A stretch of DNA of 64,000 nucleotides from a virus: IMG/VR virus record IMGVR_UViG_3300033148_002257, positions 6,280-70,279 of that record; one strand, written 5' to 3'. Within the stretch, counting starts at the first letter, position 1, and each line of letters starts with the position of its first letter. Below are positions 4,007 through 17,290 of this stretch, piece by piece. The notes beneath the pieces were generated by a model that saw only the letters and a program-made list of their open reading frames with translations, searched no databases and was not told the origin of the DNA. Made by a program: the position numbers and the translations under genes.

Positions 4007-4677
4007 GCACGTTAGTACCATCACACGATCCACTACACGCAGACGAACAGCGGTATGTCGTAGTAGATTTGGGTGTAGATGATGATATAGATGATGATTG
4101 TAAATATCTTGGATGGATAAATGGAACGTTACAACTATGTACGCCTACTAAACTATGGCATTGTGCTGGTGATGACGAGTATATAGCTGATTGGCAGTTT
4201 GACAAAGCAACAGCAGAACAGGTTGCCGCTTGTGCTAGAGAGTATAATGCACATTGCGAGGTTCGGCCATGGCCAGAAAACACAGACGAACAGCGGTACA
4301 GTTCAGACGAAGCCGAAGACGACGATATGCTGGCCGCACAGACGAGTAACGCCGCCTTTGCGAGAATGCGCCAGCAGCGGGTAATTGCAGAAGCAGACGA
4401 ACAACAGATGTGGTGTGTTTACATCAGTGAAGCTGCATACCCTTGGCGTGGTCGGTTTGGCAAAGGCAGTACCAAGTTTTTTCGAGAGTATCCCGTCCCT
4501 CTTACACGACAGGAAGCAGAAGAAACAGTTGAAGCATGTCCTGGTCAGAACCCGCAGATATTGCCATATCCGCCACCGTATACGAAATCTTGTAGATGCG
4601 ATGCATGTGACGGTACAGGTAAATGTGACGCATGCAACAGTACAGGCGTTGTGTGGATACCAGACACAGAAGCATAG
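4003..4677 (+). CDS. hypothetical protein with C-terminal DnaJ-like CxxCxGxG zinc finger; paralog of 4689-5213
   Basis: CDACDGTGKCDACNSTG; shares EQxYVV.D.G, VRPWPE.T.EQR, YPWRGR and NPQILPYP with the next ORF. Confidence 0.7.
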   Translation: MSTLVPSHDPLHADEQRYVVVDLGVDDDIDDDCKYLGWINGTLQLCTPTKLWHCAGDDEYIADWQFDKATAEQVAACAREYNAHCEVRPWPENTDEQRYSSDEAEDDDMLAAQTSNAAFARMRQQRVIAEADEQQMWCVYISEAAYPWRGRFGKGSTKFFREYPVPLTRQEAEETVEACPGQNPQILPYPPPYTKSCRCDACDGTGKCDACNSTGVVWIPDTEA

Positions 4678-12354: not shown

Positions 12355-13956
12355 TCACCATACCGCGTCCCGCCACCATTTAGGCGCTATACTCGGATAC
12401 CTACCTAACGTTTCAACCGCTTGCTGGTCTAATATATACGTTACACACCAATCATCTTTGCTACGCATCGCACGACCTGTACCCTGTACCAACGACATAA
12501 CCGCGCTGCTTTTATACCAATACGACCCCAGTTTTCCGCTCCATAACCGTTTTTCAGTCCGCTGATCGCCTCGACTCAAATATGGCATTTTAGCCCATAT
12601 AATAAACCGTGCATAGTCGTCTGGTAAATCTATCCCTCGTTCGCAACTGGGACTTATTAGTACTAACGGTTTGTTAGACGATTTAAATTTCTCTAACACA
12701 TCTATTTTGTTACGCGCATTATGAGTTATTATTCTATCTTTGTTCGCACCGTCTATGTTACGTACAATCTCTCGTGCAAGTTTATACGATACAGCATGTA
12801 TCAACCCTTTTTCGTTAGGATGATCATGTAATATGTCTCGTATAGCTATTACAACTTTCGGGATTTCGTCGTTAAACGTCTTTGCAGTTATATTAGCTAC
12901 AGGTCTCATATGTATAGGTCGTCGGTCTACGGGAAACGTACTGTCAATCTCTTTATAATCTATATCTCCTATAGGTATACCTAACAGTTTCGATAATACA
13001 GGTACAGGCGGCAGCGTCGCGCTCATTAACACAAACCTGTCCGCATGTCGCCAGAAATACTGGTACGCTAACTTTTCTGTCAACCATAACGGACTAAACG
13101 TCCATCGTGTACCGTACACTTTACTAACATGTTCTTCCATAATCCACGTTTCATCTACATATAACAAAAACAACGATAACTGACGTAACAGACTTTCTAT
13201 CCGATGTTTTTGACGTAACGCTTTTATATGTTCCTCTCCAAACTCGTCTTCTTGACTGTCTTCTAATATATGTTTAACCGTTACTAACTTCCTTCTAACA
13301 CTATCCTGCGCTTTTTCAGCCCACATTTTCCATTCCGCTAACCCGTTTTTAGCTGTAGGATTCTTATATTTAGGTAAATCCAATTTAAACATCTTTAACT
13401 GGCCAGACGTTATATTTAATCCTATAAACCCCGATAACAAACTCTCTATCATATCCGCTTCGTCACATATTATTAACGGTAACCCGCTAAACCGTCCGAC
13501 ATAGTTACATTCGTATAAATAATAACTGTAGTTTAGTATACGTAATGGTGCGTTTAATACTCTACGTTTAGCTGTTCTATACTCACATTCGTCAATATAT
13601 TCGCACGGTCGATGACTGCTATGTGTACATTCCGCCGCTGTCAACATAGGATGTGCAGTACAAGGATAATTGTTCCGACCCCATAACTTTTCCGCCTCCC
13701 CGAAATCCTCTATAATCTGGTTCTGAAGACTTTTGCTATGACACAAATATACCATATTCTTCTTTATAGCGCCACTACACATACCTATAAGCGATTTACC
13801 AGACCCTGTAGGTGCAGATAAAGCTACGACAGGTTTGTTTGACGATAATATAAAATCTATAGCTTCTGACTGATATTCACGAAAAGGTTTGTCTCGAAAA
13901 CTGGCAAAAGAGGCCTTAGCGCGGTTCATAGATTCAATGTCTGTTATCTGACACAT
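12355..13956 (-). CDS. DinG/XPD-family SF2 helicase with probable Fe-S cluster
   Basis: APTGSGKS, four-Cys cluster after GRNNYPC, ILNYSY, DEAD, MSATL, ERGIDLPDD, QGTGRAMRSKDD. Confidence 0.9.
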   Translation of the reverse strand: MCQITDIESMNRAKASFASFRDKPFREYQSEAIDFILSSNKPVVALSAPTGSGKSLIGMCSGAIKKNMVYLCHSKSLQNQIIEDFGEAEKLWGRNNYPCTAHPMLTAAECTHSSHRPCEYIDECEYRTAKRRVLNAPLRILNYSYYLYECNYVGRFSGLPLIICDEADMIESLLSGFIGLNITSGQLKMFKLDLPKYKNPTAKNGLAEWKMWAEKAQDSVRRKLVTVKHILEDSQEDEFGEEHIKALRQKHRIESLLRQLSLFLLYVDETWIMEEHVSKVYGTRWTFSPLWLTEKLAYQYFWRHADRFVLMSATLPPVPVLSKLLGIPIGDIDYKEIDSTFPVDRRPIHMRPVANITAKTFNDEIPKVVIAIRDILHDHPNEKGLIHAVSYKLAREIVRNIDGANKDRIITHNARNKIDVLEKFKSSNKPLVLISPSCERGIDLPDDYARFIIWAKMPYLSRGDQRTEKRLWSGKLGSYWYKSSAVMSLVQGTGRAMRSKDDWCVTYILDQQAVETLGRYPSIAPKWWRDAVW

Positions 13957-14425
13957 GGTCTAACCCCAAATTTGCGTTATCAGTCTCTTCCCTTACCTTA
14001 CCCCTTATCTCGACCGAGTTTGTCGTTTTTCTATAGCAAGAACGGGCCTTTTTAAGATTCTGGGCCATTCTCTCACGCTGTTCAGATGTCATTGTACGTT
14101 TGTATTCTTCTGGCGTACCGAGTCGCCATTTCCAGGACGGACAATCTTTAGCTGGACATAACTTCACTTCCCGCGCACTTTCACAGCAACACCAGAGACA
14201 ATGCCGCCTTATCGCCTGTCGAGGACTATATCGTGCACCGCAAATCTCGCCCAGCCATTCCTTCGGACGGTGTCCCATACGATACGGCCATAACGCACAC
14301 CATGTAAAATTACATTCCCGTACCCGTTTCGGACTGAATCCTACACAGTCTAAACATTGTTGTCGAATTATCCATAACGGGCTACGTTGCGAATCCGTCA
14401 TTAGTTTATTCCTTTTCTCCGTCAT
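13934..14425 (-). CDS. protein with two tandem Cys-rich zinc domains
   Basis: IRQQCLDC...VREC...CALWPYRMG repeated as IRRHCLWC...VKLC...CPSWKWRLG. Confidence 0.7.
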   Translation of the reverse strand: MTEKRNKLMTDSQRSPLWIIRQQCLDCVGFSPKRVRECNFTWCALWPYRMGHRPKEWLGEICGARYSPRQAIRRHCLWCCCESAREVKLCPAKDCPSWKWRLGTPEEYKRTMTSEQRERMAQNLKKARSCYRKTTNSVEIRGKVREETDNANLGLDHVSDNRH

Positions 14426-14429
14426 TGGT

Positions 14430-16484
14430 TCATAACTTTAACATTCTCTGTCGCGTATTCTCTTTAATACGAATACACGCTAACTCAAAGTATTCTTCAT
14501 CCTTTTCAATACCAATAAACTTGCGACCTGTATTATGTGCTGCAATTCCAGTTGTACCGCTACCCATAAACGGGTCAAGTACTATACCACCAGTAGGCGT
14601 AGACGTGAGACGACATAGCCATTCCATCAAGGCTATAGGTTTTACAGTTGGATGCGTATTACGTCGTAACGTTTTACCCCGCTGATAGGCGTTGTCAATA
14701 GGTTTCTGTCGTCCGTCATCAGTCGTGTCAGCAGGTATCCCGTTCAACCCAGCGTTTCGTTCCGCGCTGGATGCTTTACTTTGATAGCTGAACCTCGTCG
14801 GGCCGTGTGCGATTTCCATTTCGTTTATTAGGGTGGAGTTTAGCATGGCATTTTGCACATAGCCAAACCACAACTTCAGGTTCGGTATAGTCGGGATGGT
14901 GTCGATGTTGCCCCAATTTTCCGCACATAACACAAGGCTCTGGTATAGGATTCGCTTTTTGTGCTCGCTGATAGAAACCTTGCCAAGTTCGGAATCCGGG
15001 TCTTGGCCTCGCTTGATTGCTACAAGACTTCGAGCAATAGCGGTTGCGCATAAGTCGCACAGGTTTCCCACAGACTTCACAGCGCGGGCGATCTTTTCGT
15101 CTTGCGTCATGGGCACATTGTGCCGAGCAATACTTTTGGTGGTTTCCTGCATAGGCAATGAAATGCTTTCCACATTGTGGACAGACTCCCTCAATTTGCC
15201 CGATTTGCCCCCTTCGTCTTGCAGTATCTTTTCCAGCACAGGAATATGAACAGAACTGTTGTCTTCTTCGTTTGGGAATAAATTCTCTTTGGCAGACTGG
15301 GCATTGCATAATAACTCTCCTTTCTTTGTTGTGTTCATTATACCATGCCGTTGCCCCATTGTTAACCCACAAAGAACGCAACACATATCATGTTCAATCA
15401 CCTTAAAGAAACGTGACGCGCCACCAGTGTCATTAAAATGAGTACCACTCTTGATGTTATGGGCAATATGCACAGGGTTGTTGTTGTTGCTATTATCCCA
15501 GTCATATCCACTAGGAACAGATATGCTTGTTCCACTCTGCTCATCCAACATCCGTACCGGACATTCTGCATAACACACCCCGCCCTCGACACATTCGGGA
15601 TGATGCGACAACAACACGTTCGCAGGCCAACGACCCTGCTCAGAACCAACATACTGTGTGTTTCCGCCAACATCCCCCATCTGCCACGGGCGCTTGCCTT
15701 TACCAAAACCACCAGAACGCAAGTCGGTTGTCTCTATCCGCGTGCTATCAATCGCCAACCCAGCAACCCCCCACTTTTCCGCGTTCTGCGCATACGTCCC
15801 GTCTAACGGTTTCATCGCAAGCACAATCGGTTCATAGTGTGGCTTCAAAGCCGTGCCCCAGCCAGACCACAGCTTTGCGACGTCTGTAGCAGGGGCGGTT
15901 GACATATACTCCCCGCCAGCAAAATCCCCAGCCATTGAATGCCGTTTACTTCCAGACTTGCCAGCAACACCAACCACTCTCCGCTTAGCCCCCGCCGCTC
16001 GATCAATCCCTTTACTAATATCGTACGATTTCGGGAAGCCACTACCATATACCCACATGAGCGTATCGCGTATCTGCCATCCCGCATCTTCAACCGCGCA
16101 TGTGAGTCTATGACTCGTTCTTGTACCTCCAAACGCTACCAACATCGCGCCAGGTTTCGCTACACGCAAACATTCACGTGCCCATGTATAACACCATTCC
16201 TGAAACTCGTTGTTACGAGAATAATCATACGCGCCAGCATCTGCTGCATTGCCCCAAGCTACTACTTTTCTACCGTCAGTCCGAGGTTGTCGTTTTTTAT
16301 CAGATTCACGTCGTTTATTAAGATACTCTTGTTGAAACGTATCCCATGCCATACTTAGGAATCCAAGTCCATACGGAGGATCGCAAATTACGCTGTCAAC
16401 ACTGTTCTCTGGTAACTCCTGCAACACGTCCAGACAGTCACCTTGATATAACGTACACTCGCCGATATCAACACTCTTTGCCAT
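14430..16484 (-). CDS. DNA methyltransferase (N4/N6, beta class) with a ~200-aa internal insertion
   Basis: GDCLDVL, DPPY, VYGSGFPKS, GRWPAN, HPTVKP, LDPFMGSGTTG. Confidence 0.9.
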   Translation of the reverse strand: MAKSVDIGECTLYQGDCLDVLQELPENSVDSVICDPPYGLGFLSMAWDTFQQEYLNKRRESDKKRQPRTDGRKVVAWGNAADAGAYDYSRNNEFQEWCYTWARECLRVAKPGAMLVAFGGTRTSHRLTCAVEDAGWQIRDTLMWVYGSGFPKSYDISKGIDRAAGAKRRVVGVAGKSGSKRHSMAGDFAGGEYMSTAPATDVAKLWSGWGTALKPHYEPIVLAMKPLDGTYAQNAEKWGVAGLAIDSTRIETTDLRSGGFGKGKRPWQMGDVGGNTQYVGSEQGRWPANVLLSHHPECVEGGVCYAECPVRMLDEQSGTSISVPSGYDWDNSNNNNPVHIAHNIKSGTHFNDTGGASRFFKVIEHDMCCVLCGLTMGQRHGIMNTTKKGELLCNAQSAKENLFPNEEDNSSVHIPVLEKILQDEGGKSGKLRESVHNVESISLPMQETTKSIARHNVPMTQDEKIARAVKSVGNLCDLCATAIARSLVAIKRGQDPDSELGKVSISEHKKRILYQSLVLCAENWGNIDTIPTIPNLKLWFGYVQNAMLNSTLINEMEIAHGPTRFSYQSKASSAERNAGLNGIPADTTDDGRQKPIDNAYQRGKTLRRNTHPTVKPIALMEWLCRLTSTPTGGIVLDPFMGSGTTGIAAHNTGRKFIGIEKDEEYFELACIRIKENTRQRMLKL
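14776..15309 (-). CDS. HNH homing endonuclease with three CxxC...CSxxC zinc repeats, nested in an alternate frame of the methyltransferase
   Basis: CPVC/CSYSC, CPQC/CSAQC, CEVC/CSKSC, then CVMC...HRHHPDY...WLCAKCHAKLH; AAAGGAG RBS. Confidence 0.85.
   Translation of the reverse strand: MQCPVCQREFIPKRRRQQFCSYSCAGKDTARRRGQIGQIEGVCPQCGKHFIAYAGNHQKYCSAQCAHDARRKDRPRCEVCGKPVRLMRNRYCSKSCSNQARPRPGFRTWQGFYQRAQKANPIPEPCVMCGKLGQHRHHPDYTEPEVVVWLCAKCHAKLHPNKRNGNRTRPDEVQLSK
15337..15365 (-). promoter_or_regulatory. internal sigma70 promoter driving the nested HNH
   Basis: TTAACA-17 nt-TATAAT with TG extension, ~28 nt upstream of the HNH ATG. Confidence 0.75.
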
Positions 16485-16833
16485 TCCCCAAACCTCTAAC
16501 CCTATTAGCATCACACATTACACAATCTTCACCTACACGAGACATTAAAACGCCATCTTTAATTACATTTCTACATACAACACCCGTATCTTTACAATAA
16601 ACGCACGTATGCCCTTCTCTATAACTACGTTCTTTTAACTCGTCATAATGTTCATAAACAGTTACAGGATTATTTTCATCGTCATACTCATAAAACTCTA
16701 ACCGCCAATACGTCTGACATTCCATACAGAATAAACTGGGATTATGCGGTAAAGCAGACAAAACGTCGCCAATAACAGTCATATAATTTACTTCACCACA
16801 TTTAGGACAATAAACCTTAATAGCCATACTCAT
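16468..16833 (-). CDS. zinc-finger protein
   Basis: Four CxxC pairs. Confidence 0.6.
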   Translation of the reverse strand: MSMAIKVYCPKCGEVNYMTVIGDVLSALPHNPSLFCMECQTYWRLEFYEYDDENNPVTVYEHYDELKERSYREGHTCVYCKDTGVVCRNVIKDGVLMSRVGEDCVMCDANRVRGLGNGKEC

Positions 16834-17290
16834 TGTTAATACCTTTTATATTCTTAAATATATAGGCCATATCCTGTACTATACTTTCAACCCGTTCTTG
16901 AAACTCGTTTTCCAAAATATCGTTCATCTGTTTGTTGTTTTTGACATTTTCATCTATTACAAGCCATAACCGTCTTTTTACCCATTCAGTAAGTCCAGCA
17001 ACAAAAGTATGACACAATTCATGATACATATCTAATTGTTGATCTTTTATAGTAGTATCGAAAAACTTAGTATACAATACAATTTGTACCTGTCGATATT
17101 CAGGACGAAAAGTAATAGACGCGCAACTAGAAGGGTCTTCTTTAGATGGACCACCAGCACAATCTACAATAACTGAATAGACCCAAAATGGCAAATAATC
17201 TAATATAGGTTCTATAGCATCTTTTGCCATAGATTTCAGTTTTGTATTTTCAAAGAACCGATATTCAACGTCTGGCCTATTTTTTAACAT
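16817..17290 (-). CDS. putative zinc metallopeptidase-like protein
   Basis: HELCH (HExxH) plus a downstream Glu; AAAGGA RBS. Confidence 0.55.
   Translation of the reverse strand: MLKNRPDVEYRFFENTKLKSMAKDAIEPILDYLPFWVYSVIVDCAGGPSKEDPSSCASITFRPEYRQVQIVLYTKFFDTTIKDQQLDMYHELCHTFVAGLTEWVKRRLWLVIDENVKNNKQMNDILENEFQERVESIVQDMAYIFKNIKGINNEYGY

Follow-up and report, generated by a model that had tools for sequence, protein, structure and literature searches.

The locus and its genes

We examined a stretch of 64,000 nucleotides (nt) of the virus record IMGVR_UViG_3300033148_002257, hereafter the window, and all coordinates are positions in this window. On its minus strand, a DNA methyltransferase (methylase) gene harbours a complete HNH endonuclease gene that is read in another frame, and the methylase frame can be followed from its start to its own stop codon through the whole insert. 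The features of the locus are listed below with the evidence for each, where ORF is open reading frame, AdoMet is S-adenosylmethionine, AF2 is AlphaFold2 and pLDDT is its predicted local distance difference test score.

14430..16514, minus strand: DNA methyltransferase ORF, uninterrupted over its whole length including the insert (ORF list, Pfam, Foldseek)
15405..16484, minus strand: methylase 5′ "exon", the catalytic half with DPPY, ending in ...GGASRFF (alignment; AF2 pLDDT mostly >90 in the core)
14430..14786, minus strand: methylase 3′ "exon", YQSKASSAERN..HPTVKP..LDPFMGSGTT, the AdoMet-binding half and the stop (alignment; AF2 pLDDT about 95)
14787..15404, minus strand: mobile insert, 618 nt or 206 codons in the methylase frame, K371 to S576 (alignment of homologues)
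14776..15309, minus strand: HNH endonuclease gene, 177 amino acids (aa) and TAA, in the −1 frame relative to the methylase (ORF list, phrog_1271)
15360..15365, minus strand: −35 hexamer TTAACA (promoter scan)
15337..15345, minus strand: TG-extended −10 box (TGGTATAAT), read as HGIMN in the methylase frame and YNE in the HNH frame, kept in relatives (promoter scan)
15317..15323, minus strand: Shine-Dalgarno word AAAGGAG, 7 nt ahead of the HNH ATG (read from the sequence)
14826..15104, minus strand: methylase-frame residues 471-563, four predicted helices with conserved Leu, Cys, Ile and Phe (AF2, site conservation)

The methylase ORF encodes 694 aa from the GTG at 16514 or 684 aa from the ATG at 16484. 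Pfam PF01555 (N6_N4_Mtase) matches it in two stretches (E 2.3e-36), and the residues D45, P46 and P47 of the DPPY motif and F649, G651 and G653 of the FxGxG motif are invariant in the aligned homologues. With DPPY in its N-terminal half and FxGxG in its C-terminal half, the protein is, to judge by its motifs, a beta-class N6-adenine/N4-cytosine DNA methyltransferase.

The nested ORF, which extends to 14776..15384 when a GTG start is used, encodes a protein with three CxxC...CxxxC zinc ribbons followed by a C-terminal CxxCG..HRHHPDY..WLCxxCH motif. It matches phrog_1271, annotated "HNH endonuclease", in PHROGs (E 2.9e-25), and residues C126, C129, H135, H137, H138, C151, C154, H155 and H159 are invariant across its relatives. 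By coordinates, each HNH codon begins 1 nt before a methylase codon, which places the HNH in the −1 (= +2) frame. Its TAA sits within the conserved methylase motif YQSKAS, and therefore the last four HNH codons (three sense codons and the TAA) overlap true methylase sequence. The gene occurs once in the window. The original prediction, made from the letters of this locus, had described an HNH gene nested in the −1 frame of an intact methylase ORF, and coordinates, Pfam and phrog_1271 bear this out; the TTAACA-17-TATAAT promoter, the AAAGGAG and the 177-aa zinc-repeat HNH were likewise all found where it had placed them.

The insert interrupts the methylase at a fixed site

The borders of the insert were mapped with 19 aligned sequences out of the 120 best methylase homologues. 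The homologues P0002, P0003, P0008 and P0010 (52-57% identical) are insert-free and run uninterrupted through ...GGASRFF-YCAKSS..., and 15 of the 19 aligned homologues have 161-212 additional residues at exactly the SRFF|Y site. From this alignment with the insert-free homologues, the insert of the window spans 206 codons (15404-14787); a length of about 600 bp had been predicted and mapping of the junctions gives 618 nt. The dipeptide RF is found at both borders (SRFF ... TRFS-Y). The insertion site is thus fixed and conserved in the methylase, and the insert is present in some alleles and absent from close ones.

Relatives of the embedded HNH gene

Relatives were gathered mostly via the HNH frame, to avoid selecting for open methylase frames. 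One viral locus came from a scan with the single HNH, nine viral loci from an alignment of the host frame, and 80 metagenome loci and five from metagenome-assembled genomes from an HNH alignment; L025-L109 were found through the HNH frame and not through the methylase frame. The single-HNH viral scan yielded mostly free-standing relatives (L002-L015), which were used as controls, and one embedded copy (L001).

Altogether, 110 sequences were examined (109 loci and the window). In 94 of them the HNH lies beside at least one recognisable methylase half. Thirteen others have an HNH relative without methylase flanks at E≤1e-5, twelve of which are free-standing and the thirteenth of which (L042) sits on inspection in a degraded methylase; the last three have no HNH match at E≤1e-5. 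Wherever an adjoining flank was found, the methylase frame is the HNH +1 frame, and off-frame matches to the N half are confined to L044 and L074, where they lie far upstream, and L092. The 94 loci form 65 clusters at 90% nt identity. The clusters of L088, L092 and L099, in which the HNH frame closes early, were left out, leaving 62 clusters. When the window HNH was compared with GenBank phages by tblastn, one uncultured phage with a 53% identical copy was recovered along with weak zinc-ribbon matches.

Some of these methylase ORFs contain further hidden HNH-like ORFs at other sites. Those of L001 (1933-2553) and L093 (1499-1969) are of an EHR..HHIN..DNR type that resembles the published ShiLan element (see below), and others are found in L016 (1177-1800), L046 (1589-2092), L107 (1523-2002), L021 (825-1664), L023 (792-1631), L047 (919-1674), L089 (817-1518) and L097 (1054-1782). 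Several of them are unrelated, and some are offset by +2 and others by +1. The methylases that carry them have a host frame open for up to 971 codons and at least two nested nuclease genes each.

The methylase frame avoids stop codons across the HNH gene

Depletion of stops across homologous inserts had been named as a check of the original prediction: the methylase frame has no stop across the HNH gene in any of the 62 clusters (62/62, <90% nt identity, 9462 codons). The +2 frame of the same 62 embedded genes has 3-21 stops per gene, and the 12 free-standing HNH relatives have 25 stops in 1189 codons of their +1 frame. Both flanks are present in 78 loci, and in 73 of these no stop interrupts the frame between the beginning of the N-half match and the end of the C-half match.

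The most conservative null used is a shuffle of synonymous codons within each gene, which keeps the already adapted codon usage of that gene. Under this shuffle, 1.94 stops per gene are expected over the 62 clusters, and the probability of a stop-free gene, P(0), has a median of 0.059 and ranges from 0.004 to 0.70 for single genes. Multiplied over the 62 clusters, the shuffle probabilities give 10^-76.5, which is no true probability as the clusters are related. For the window gene, the same shuffle predicts 2.36 stops (P(0) = 0.027). When the HNH protein is encoded with the window's own codon usage, 5.73 methylase-frame stops are expected (analytic P(0) = 9.8e-5), and none of 20,000 redraws was stop-free.

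The codons themselves carry the mark of this avoidance. A stop in the +1 frame requires xTA|R or xTG|A. In the 62 embedded genes, Leu, Val and Ile codons never end in A or G ahead of a codon that starts with A (0/217) and never end in A ahead of a G (0/199), against 59% ending in A or G ahead of a codon that starts with C. Met is never followed by a codon that starts with A (0/181), and Met-Arg pairs use CGN in 52 of 52 cases. The 12 free-standing relatives break these rules of codon context. These patterns indicate that the lack of stops in the host frame is selected and not due to chance.

Both genes are conserved and the cassette moves

Pairwise differences between relatives were sorted by HNH codon position. 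Third positions differ more than first positions, and first more than second, in every divergence bin (at 20-30% divergence: 0.364, 0.224 and 0.192, respectively), and identity in the HNH frame exceeds identity in the methylase frame throughout. The HNH has a ratio of third- to second-position differences of 1.6-2.0; at the same loci, this ratio is 1.7-2.5 in the C exon and about 1.5 in the N exon. The position pattern of the HNH thus matches that of the single-coding methylase exons, and we therefore read it as ordinary purifying selection that acts on the HNH as well as on the exons of alleles with the insert.

The cassette and its host gene have different histories. In L077, L078 and L079, which belong to the largest cluster, the HNH is 100% identical over 420 nt in exons that are 71-79% identical. 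Likewise, L081 and L082 share an HNH that is 100% identical in exons of 74-75% identity, and L072 and L080 have a 100% identical HNH, an N exon at 72% and a C exon at 95%. Averaged over 210 pairs, the HNH proteins are more alike (aa identity 0.58) than the C exons (0.51) or the N exons (0.39), and HNH and exon identities are weakly correlated (Spearman 0.21 and 0.26). This is the pattern of a cassette that moves between diverged methylase alleles.

Expression signals of the nested gene

A sigma-70-type promoter, TTAACA (15365-15360) followed after 17 nt by TATAAT (15342-15337), lies ahead of the HNH gene within the insert; it has 11 of 12 consensus matches and a TG before the −10 box. It ranks best among 6 promoter-like sites in 14300-16700, where shuffled sequences average 3.7 sites. 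The methylase-frame motif HGIMN is encoded by CATGGTATAATGAAC, that is, by the extended −10 box itself.

With at most two mismatches allowed at −35 and at most one at −10, and with a crude finder of start codons, 23 of 50 representatives have such a promoter, five of these being a perfect TTGACA-17-TATAAT with TG. A Shine-Dalgarno-like word is present in 22 of the 50. In L103, L096, L101, L037, L105 and L016, only 6-7 nt separate the end of the −10 box from the ATG and a Shine-Dalgarno word is missing; the window, by contrast, has a 20-nt leader that carries AAAGGAG. The short distance between −10 box and ATG in these variants suggests leaderless mRNAs.

The read-through peptide and its possible constraint

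The 684-aa methylase was modelled with AF2 from a 116-row alignment (numbering from the ATG; +10 for the GTG form). The two halves together form a complete methylase core with block pLDDT mostly 90-98. In Foldseek, this core matches CcrM (6pbd, E 1.7e-8) and M.BceJIV (template modelling score 0.78 of the target), then M.MboIIA and M.RsrI. In the insert, residues 381-460 have pLDDT of 26-37, two helices at 461-491 reach about 70 and the remainder lies at 37-55. When the insert was modelled alone from a 45-row alignment, its first half was disordered and construct residues 111-203 formed four helices with block pLDDT of 66-83. This four-helix stretch overlaps HNH residues 69-161. A Foldseek search of the host-frame insert model against the PDB gave no match (best E 0.74).

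Third bases of the HNH codons were also counted on a 62-taxon tree. At the four-fold sites of P83, V84, P121, P125, P144 and V148 they changed 0-6 times, against 10-19 times at the other eleven four-fold HNH sites. In the methylase frame these slow sites give Leu, Cys, Leu, Leu, Leu and Phe, respectively. Sites whose major third base is T (the hydrophobic class) differ from the others by Mann-Whitney test (p = 0.002 for four-fold and p = 0.005 for two-fold sites), with site classes that were defined after seeing the data. At two Pro sites, CCT is used in 55/57 and 48/50 embedded genes and in 1/6 and 1/11 free-standing ones, the latter being few and possibly of different base composition; other Pro sites within the embedded genes prefer CCA.

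These observations suggest that the read-through peptide itself is constrained. A stronger proposal is that about 95 codons encode two folded proteins: the HNH core in its own frame and a small four-helix spacer domain in that of the methylase. The element would bring this domain along, and it would let the methylase halves assemble. We regard the case for and against this proposal as evenly balanced, and the AF2 confidence for the insert helices may reflect mere conservation.

A zinc clasp formed by two CxxC pairs of the methylase frame was considered and rejected. Only one of the four Cys is at least 90% conserved among 45 sequences, and the second Cys of the second pair is forced by an HNH Met-Arg pair together with stop avoidance.

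A variant with a reassigned stop codon, and the genomic context

In the metagenome contig L099 (1578-3302), the methylase-frame stretch contains 29 TGA codons and the HNH frame seven. They sit on conserved glycines (FMGKxWD, YGSGFPKS, DPFNGSGSTG), and both frames are open under NCBI table 25. Since both frames are open under that table, L099 is no exception: to judge from its codons, it is a phage of a host that reads TGA as glycine and it keeps the out-of-frame design.

The viral record to which the window belongs comprises 70,279 bases, has direct terminal repeats and is complete (CheckV 100%). A search for public sequencing runs over 14430-16514 listed none. The methylase is followed by a Cys-rich ORF of 163 aa (13934-14425, minus strand), whose start adjoins the methylase stop, and by a helicase-like ORF of 533 aa (12355-13956, minus strand).

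Discussion

We consider it very probable that the locus carries an HNH homing cassette nested out of frame in the methylase, with the host frame kept open by selection and read through as a loop. A homing cassette of the free-standing HNH type would have entered the conserved SRFF|Y site of a phage beta-class methylase without an intron or intein. The nuclease would be made in the −1 frame from its own sigma-70 promoter and ribosome site, and ribosomes translating the methylase would read straight through the cassette in the host frame, adding a loop of about 206 residues between the catalytic (DPPY) and AdoMet-binding (FxGxG) halves. Selection on codon choice would keep the host frame free of stops, so that the methylase would stay in one piece and remain active, at little cost to the host. 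In co-infections, the nuclease presumably cuts insert-free alleles at SRFF|Y, and repair would then copy the cassette in; we infer this homing activity from the distribution of the insert. The original prediction had proposed, from a single locus, that the invader keeps the host frame open and that the methylase tolerates the loop. The 62 of 62 stop-free clusters, the codon contexts and the purifying selection on the exons lend support to this proposal.

Several observations weigh against this interpretation. The clusters share ancestry and their 62 zeros are non-independent trials. No Pfam HNH model matches the nested ORF at E≤0.01, at which only weak zinc-ribbon and DUF matches are found, and the HNH assignment rests on PHROGs and on the visible motif. 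Only 23 of the 50 representatives score a strong promoter, with a start-codon finder that is crude. In L092, the N half lies in another frame; its methylase frame is still open across the HNH and its stops lie upstream of the HNH proper. L100 (1028-1040) has a TAA in the methylase frame three codons past the junction. In L088 (2495-2950), the HNH has one in-frame stop after the first zinc ribbon and the methylase frame is open, which may represent a decaying nuclease in a still intact host gene. Finally, an interrupted methylase appears to be tolerated in the family as well. The host frame of L016 (3023) and L039 closes after the HNH and the C half is found far downstream (at 4341 and 1747, respectively), and the N half of L044 and L074 is matched in another frame, far upstream. 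We read these four as methylases split by further insertions elsewhere; split methylases with inserted genes are found in the same family in PopTart and StevieRay.

Could an unrecognised intron, an atypical intein or bypassing of the T4 gene 60 kind remove the insert before the mature methylase is made? The insert does lie exactly between conserved codons, and the RF repeat at its borders could represent take-off and landing sites or an internal guide pairing. A scan of 14000-17000 with Rfam, on both strands and at E≤1, gave no match to the described ribozyme classes that it covers, and no Hint/intein domain was found in the Pfam scan of the methylase ORF; both databases are limited to described families. 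In the aligned homologues, K, M, P, R, F or A opens the insert and a Y comes directly after it, and intein junction residues (a Cys, Ser or Thr in first position, a C-terminal His-Asn) are lacking. The original prediction had likewise seen neither intein termini nor an intron core, and these searches agree with it. In addition, the HNH ORF takes up all but about 95 nt of the insert, which leaves too little for a group I or II core. Bypassing has as its hallmark a stop directly after the take-off codon and a matching landing codon, and the host frame has no stop after a would-be take-off codon or anywhere else. Moreover, the substitutions show a codon pattern and not a pairing pattern. Above all, some 140-200 codons are kept open in 62 of 62 clusters by context-specific codons. 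As the open frame appears selected, and as such selection would be pointless on a segment that is not translated, splicing or bypassing, which had been offered as an alternative when the locus was first described, is disfavoured and we hold it to be very unlikely.

The open frame might instead be a by-product, the methylase being dead or made in two pieces and the stops being absent owing to HNH composition or recent descent. The HNH is indeed poor in Leu, Ile, Val and Met, which leaves few stop-prone contexts, P(0) of single genes under the conservative shuffle is only 0.004-0.70, and split versions of the methylase exist. Against these points stand the product of the 62 shuffle probabilities (10^-76.5, for clusters that are not independent), the 25 stops in 1189 codons of free-standing relatives of similar composition and the 5.73 stops predicted by the codon usage of the window. 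Insert-bearing exons retain DPPY and FxGxG with third- to second-position ratios of 1.5-2.5, and HNH proteins that have diverged to about 45-60% identity have not one stop in the other frame. We regard a by-product as extremely unlikely. As for the HNH being a domesticated partner of the methylase, such as a modification-linked nuclease or an anti-defence module whose nesting would ensure co-expression, this is very unlikely in our view. It would fit the purifying selection on the HNH, its own strong promoter and its constant association with this methylase family in our sample, an association that is partly built in, as the search patterns were derived from this HNH. Reuse as a DNA-binding module is also raised in section 4.2 of PMC11855218. 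On the other side, the insert is patchily present among close methylase homologues, identical cassettes sit in exons that are 21-29% divergent, the insertion site is exact and conserved, other sites of the same methylase ORFs are occupied by several unrelated hidden HNH genes, and L088 has a stop in its HNH frame and an open host frame. Altogether, these five features seem to fit a homing cycle better than a fixed partnership.

Comparison with known systems

According to the usual view, a homing endonuclease can persist within a gene only if an intron or intein shelters it. Like an intein with a homing endonuclease domain, the element of the window would be translated with its host protein, occupies a conserved site and appears to spread by homing. 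It differs in that the nuclease of an intein lies in the host frame of a self-splicing element, whereas that of the window is out of frame and has neither a Hint domain nor splice-junction residues. Free-standing homing endonucleases can also split phage genes, as do the mob and seg genes of T-even phages and the endonuclease in the split nrdA of phage Aeh1. These share with the window a nuclease that has its own expression signals in a conserved gene without an intron or intein; there, however, the host gene is cut into two polypeptides, and in the window the host frame is continuous.

A third way, in which the nuclease is out of frame and the host frame stays open, was added by work on the ShiLan domain between 2023 and 2025 (Gosselin et al. 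2023, PMC9957025; Arsenault, Gosselin and Gogarten 2025, PMC11855218). The "another strategy" that the original prediction proposed had already been published in 2025, as the ShiLan domain or hidden HNH (PMC11855218). As described there, this 202-aa domain of mycobacteriophage DNA methylases leaves the host frame free of stops, encodes a 195-aa HNH in the third frame, shows no features of inteins or introns, is patchily distributed and is predicted to form a hairpin-like loop. The account of its expression reports no ribosome-binding site for the HNH and proposes leaderless GTG initiation. A second case, an insertion in Pacc40 gp60, is given in section 3.6 of the same paper. The idea is spreading, as seen from PMC12613952, bioRxiv 10.1101/2025.01.02.630785 and bioRxiv 10.64898/2026.09.14.751524, in the last of which the out-of-frame endonuclease is that of a dnaX intein. 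The 2025 paper (PMC11855218) contains none of the words synonymous, purifying, promoter, codon usage and metagenom, and that of 2023 (PMC9957025) contains none of purifying, synonymous and stop codon.

The window and ShiLan have much in common. Both inserts reside in the same methylase family: the window protein can be aligned with Pollywog gp67 and MISSy gp100, and its mycobacteriophage matches share 37-44% identity with it. In both cases, an insert of about 200 aa occupies a conserved site without a host-frame stop or an intein/intron signature, is less diverged than its host gene and is modelled by AlphaFold as a low-confidence loop with a small helical part. Both have a short border stretch that repeats the flanking exon, and the HNH is offset by +2 from the methylase, as in Pollywog. 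However, the ShiLan site is ALKP|xxEPIVVAxKP, whereas that of the window, GGASRFF|Y.AKAS, lies about 150 residues downstream. The ShiLan HNH has an EHRxVME..HHVNG..DNR motif in the middle of the protein, whereas that of the window has a C-terminal CxxCG..HRHHPDY..WLCxxCH, and tblastn of the window HNH against GenBank phages recovered no ShiLan-bearing phage at E≤1e-5. ShiLan is found in actinobacteriophages and the window lineage in uncultured environmental phages. Finally, the window HNH has its own promoter and Shine-Dalgarno word, in contrast to the ShiLan HNH, for which no ribosome-binding site is reported. With another site and another type of HNH, the element of the window is, as far as sequence comparison tells, of the same kind as ShiLan and not of the same lineage. 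Pacc40 gp60 also resembles it, being described as a helicase-methylase gene with an out-of-frame HNH-like ORF, an open host frame and free-standing relatives beside related methylases (PMC11855218); on that description, it is set apart by another methylase family and another nuclease lineage.

Our results add to the ShiLan work an internal promoter and ribosome site, stop avoidance at the scale of a population and signs that the read-through peptide is constrained. For this HNH lineage, the internal promoter and ribosome site would answer the question raised by the 2025 paper of how a hidden nuclease is made. The codon-context pattern is a testable mark of selection for read-through, which could aid automatic detection of such genes and prevent their mis-annotation. 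If the helices of the host frame are indeed selected, the locus would be a long natural example of two folded proteins encoded on one strand. While the design itself was first published in 2025, the lineage of the window appears to be new and widespread. The third way is thus no oddity of mycobacteriophages: within the same methylase family, it is used at another site by an HNH lineage that is unrelated. The design has at least 62 diverged variants in many environments, with a phage that would read TGA as glycine among them, and the same methylase ORFs can hold further hidden nucleases.

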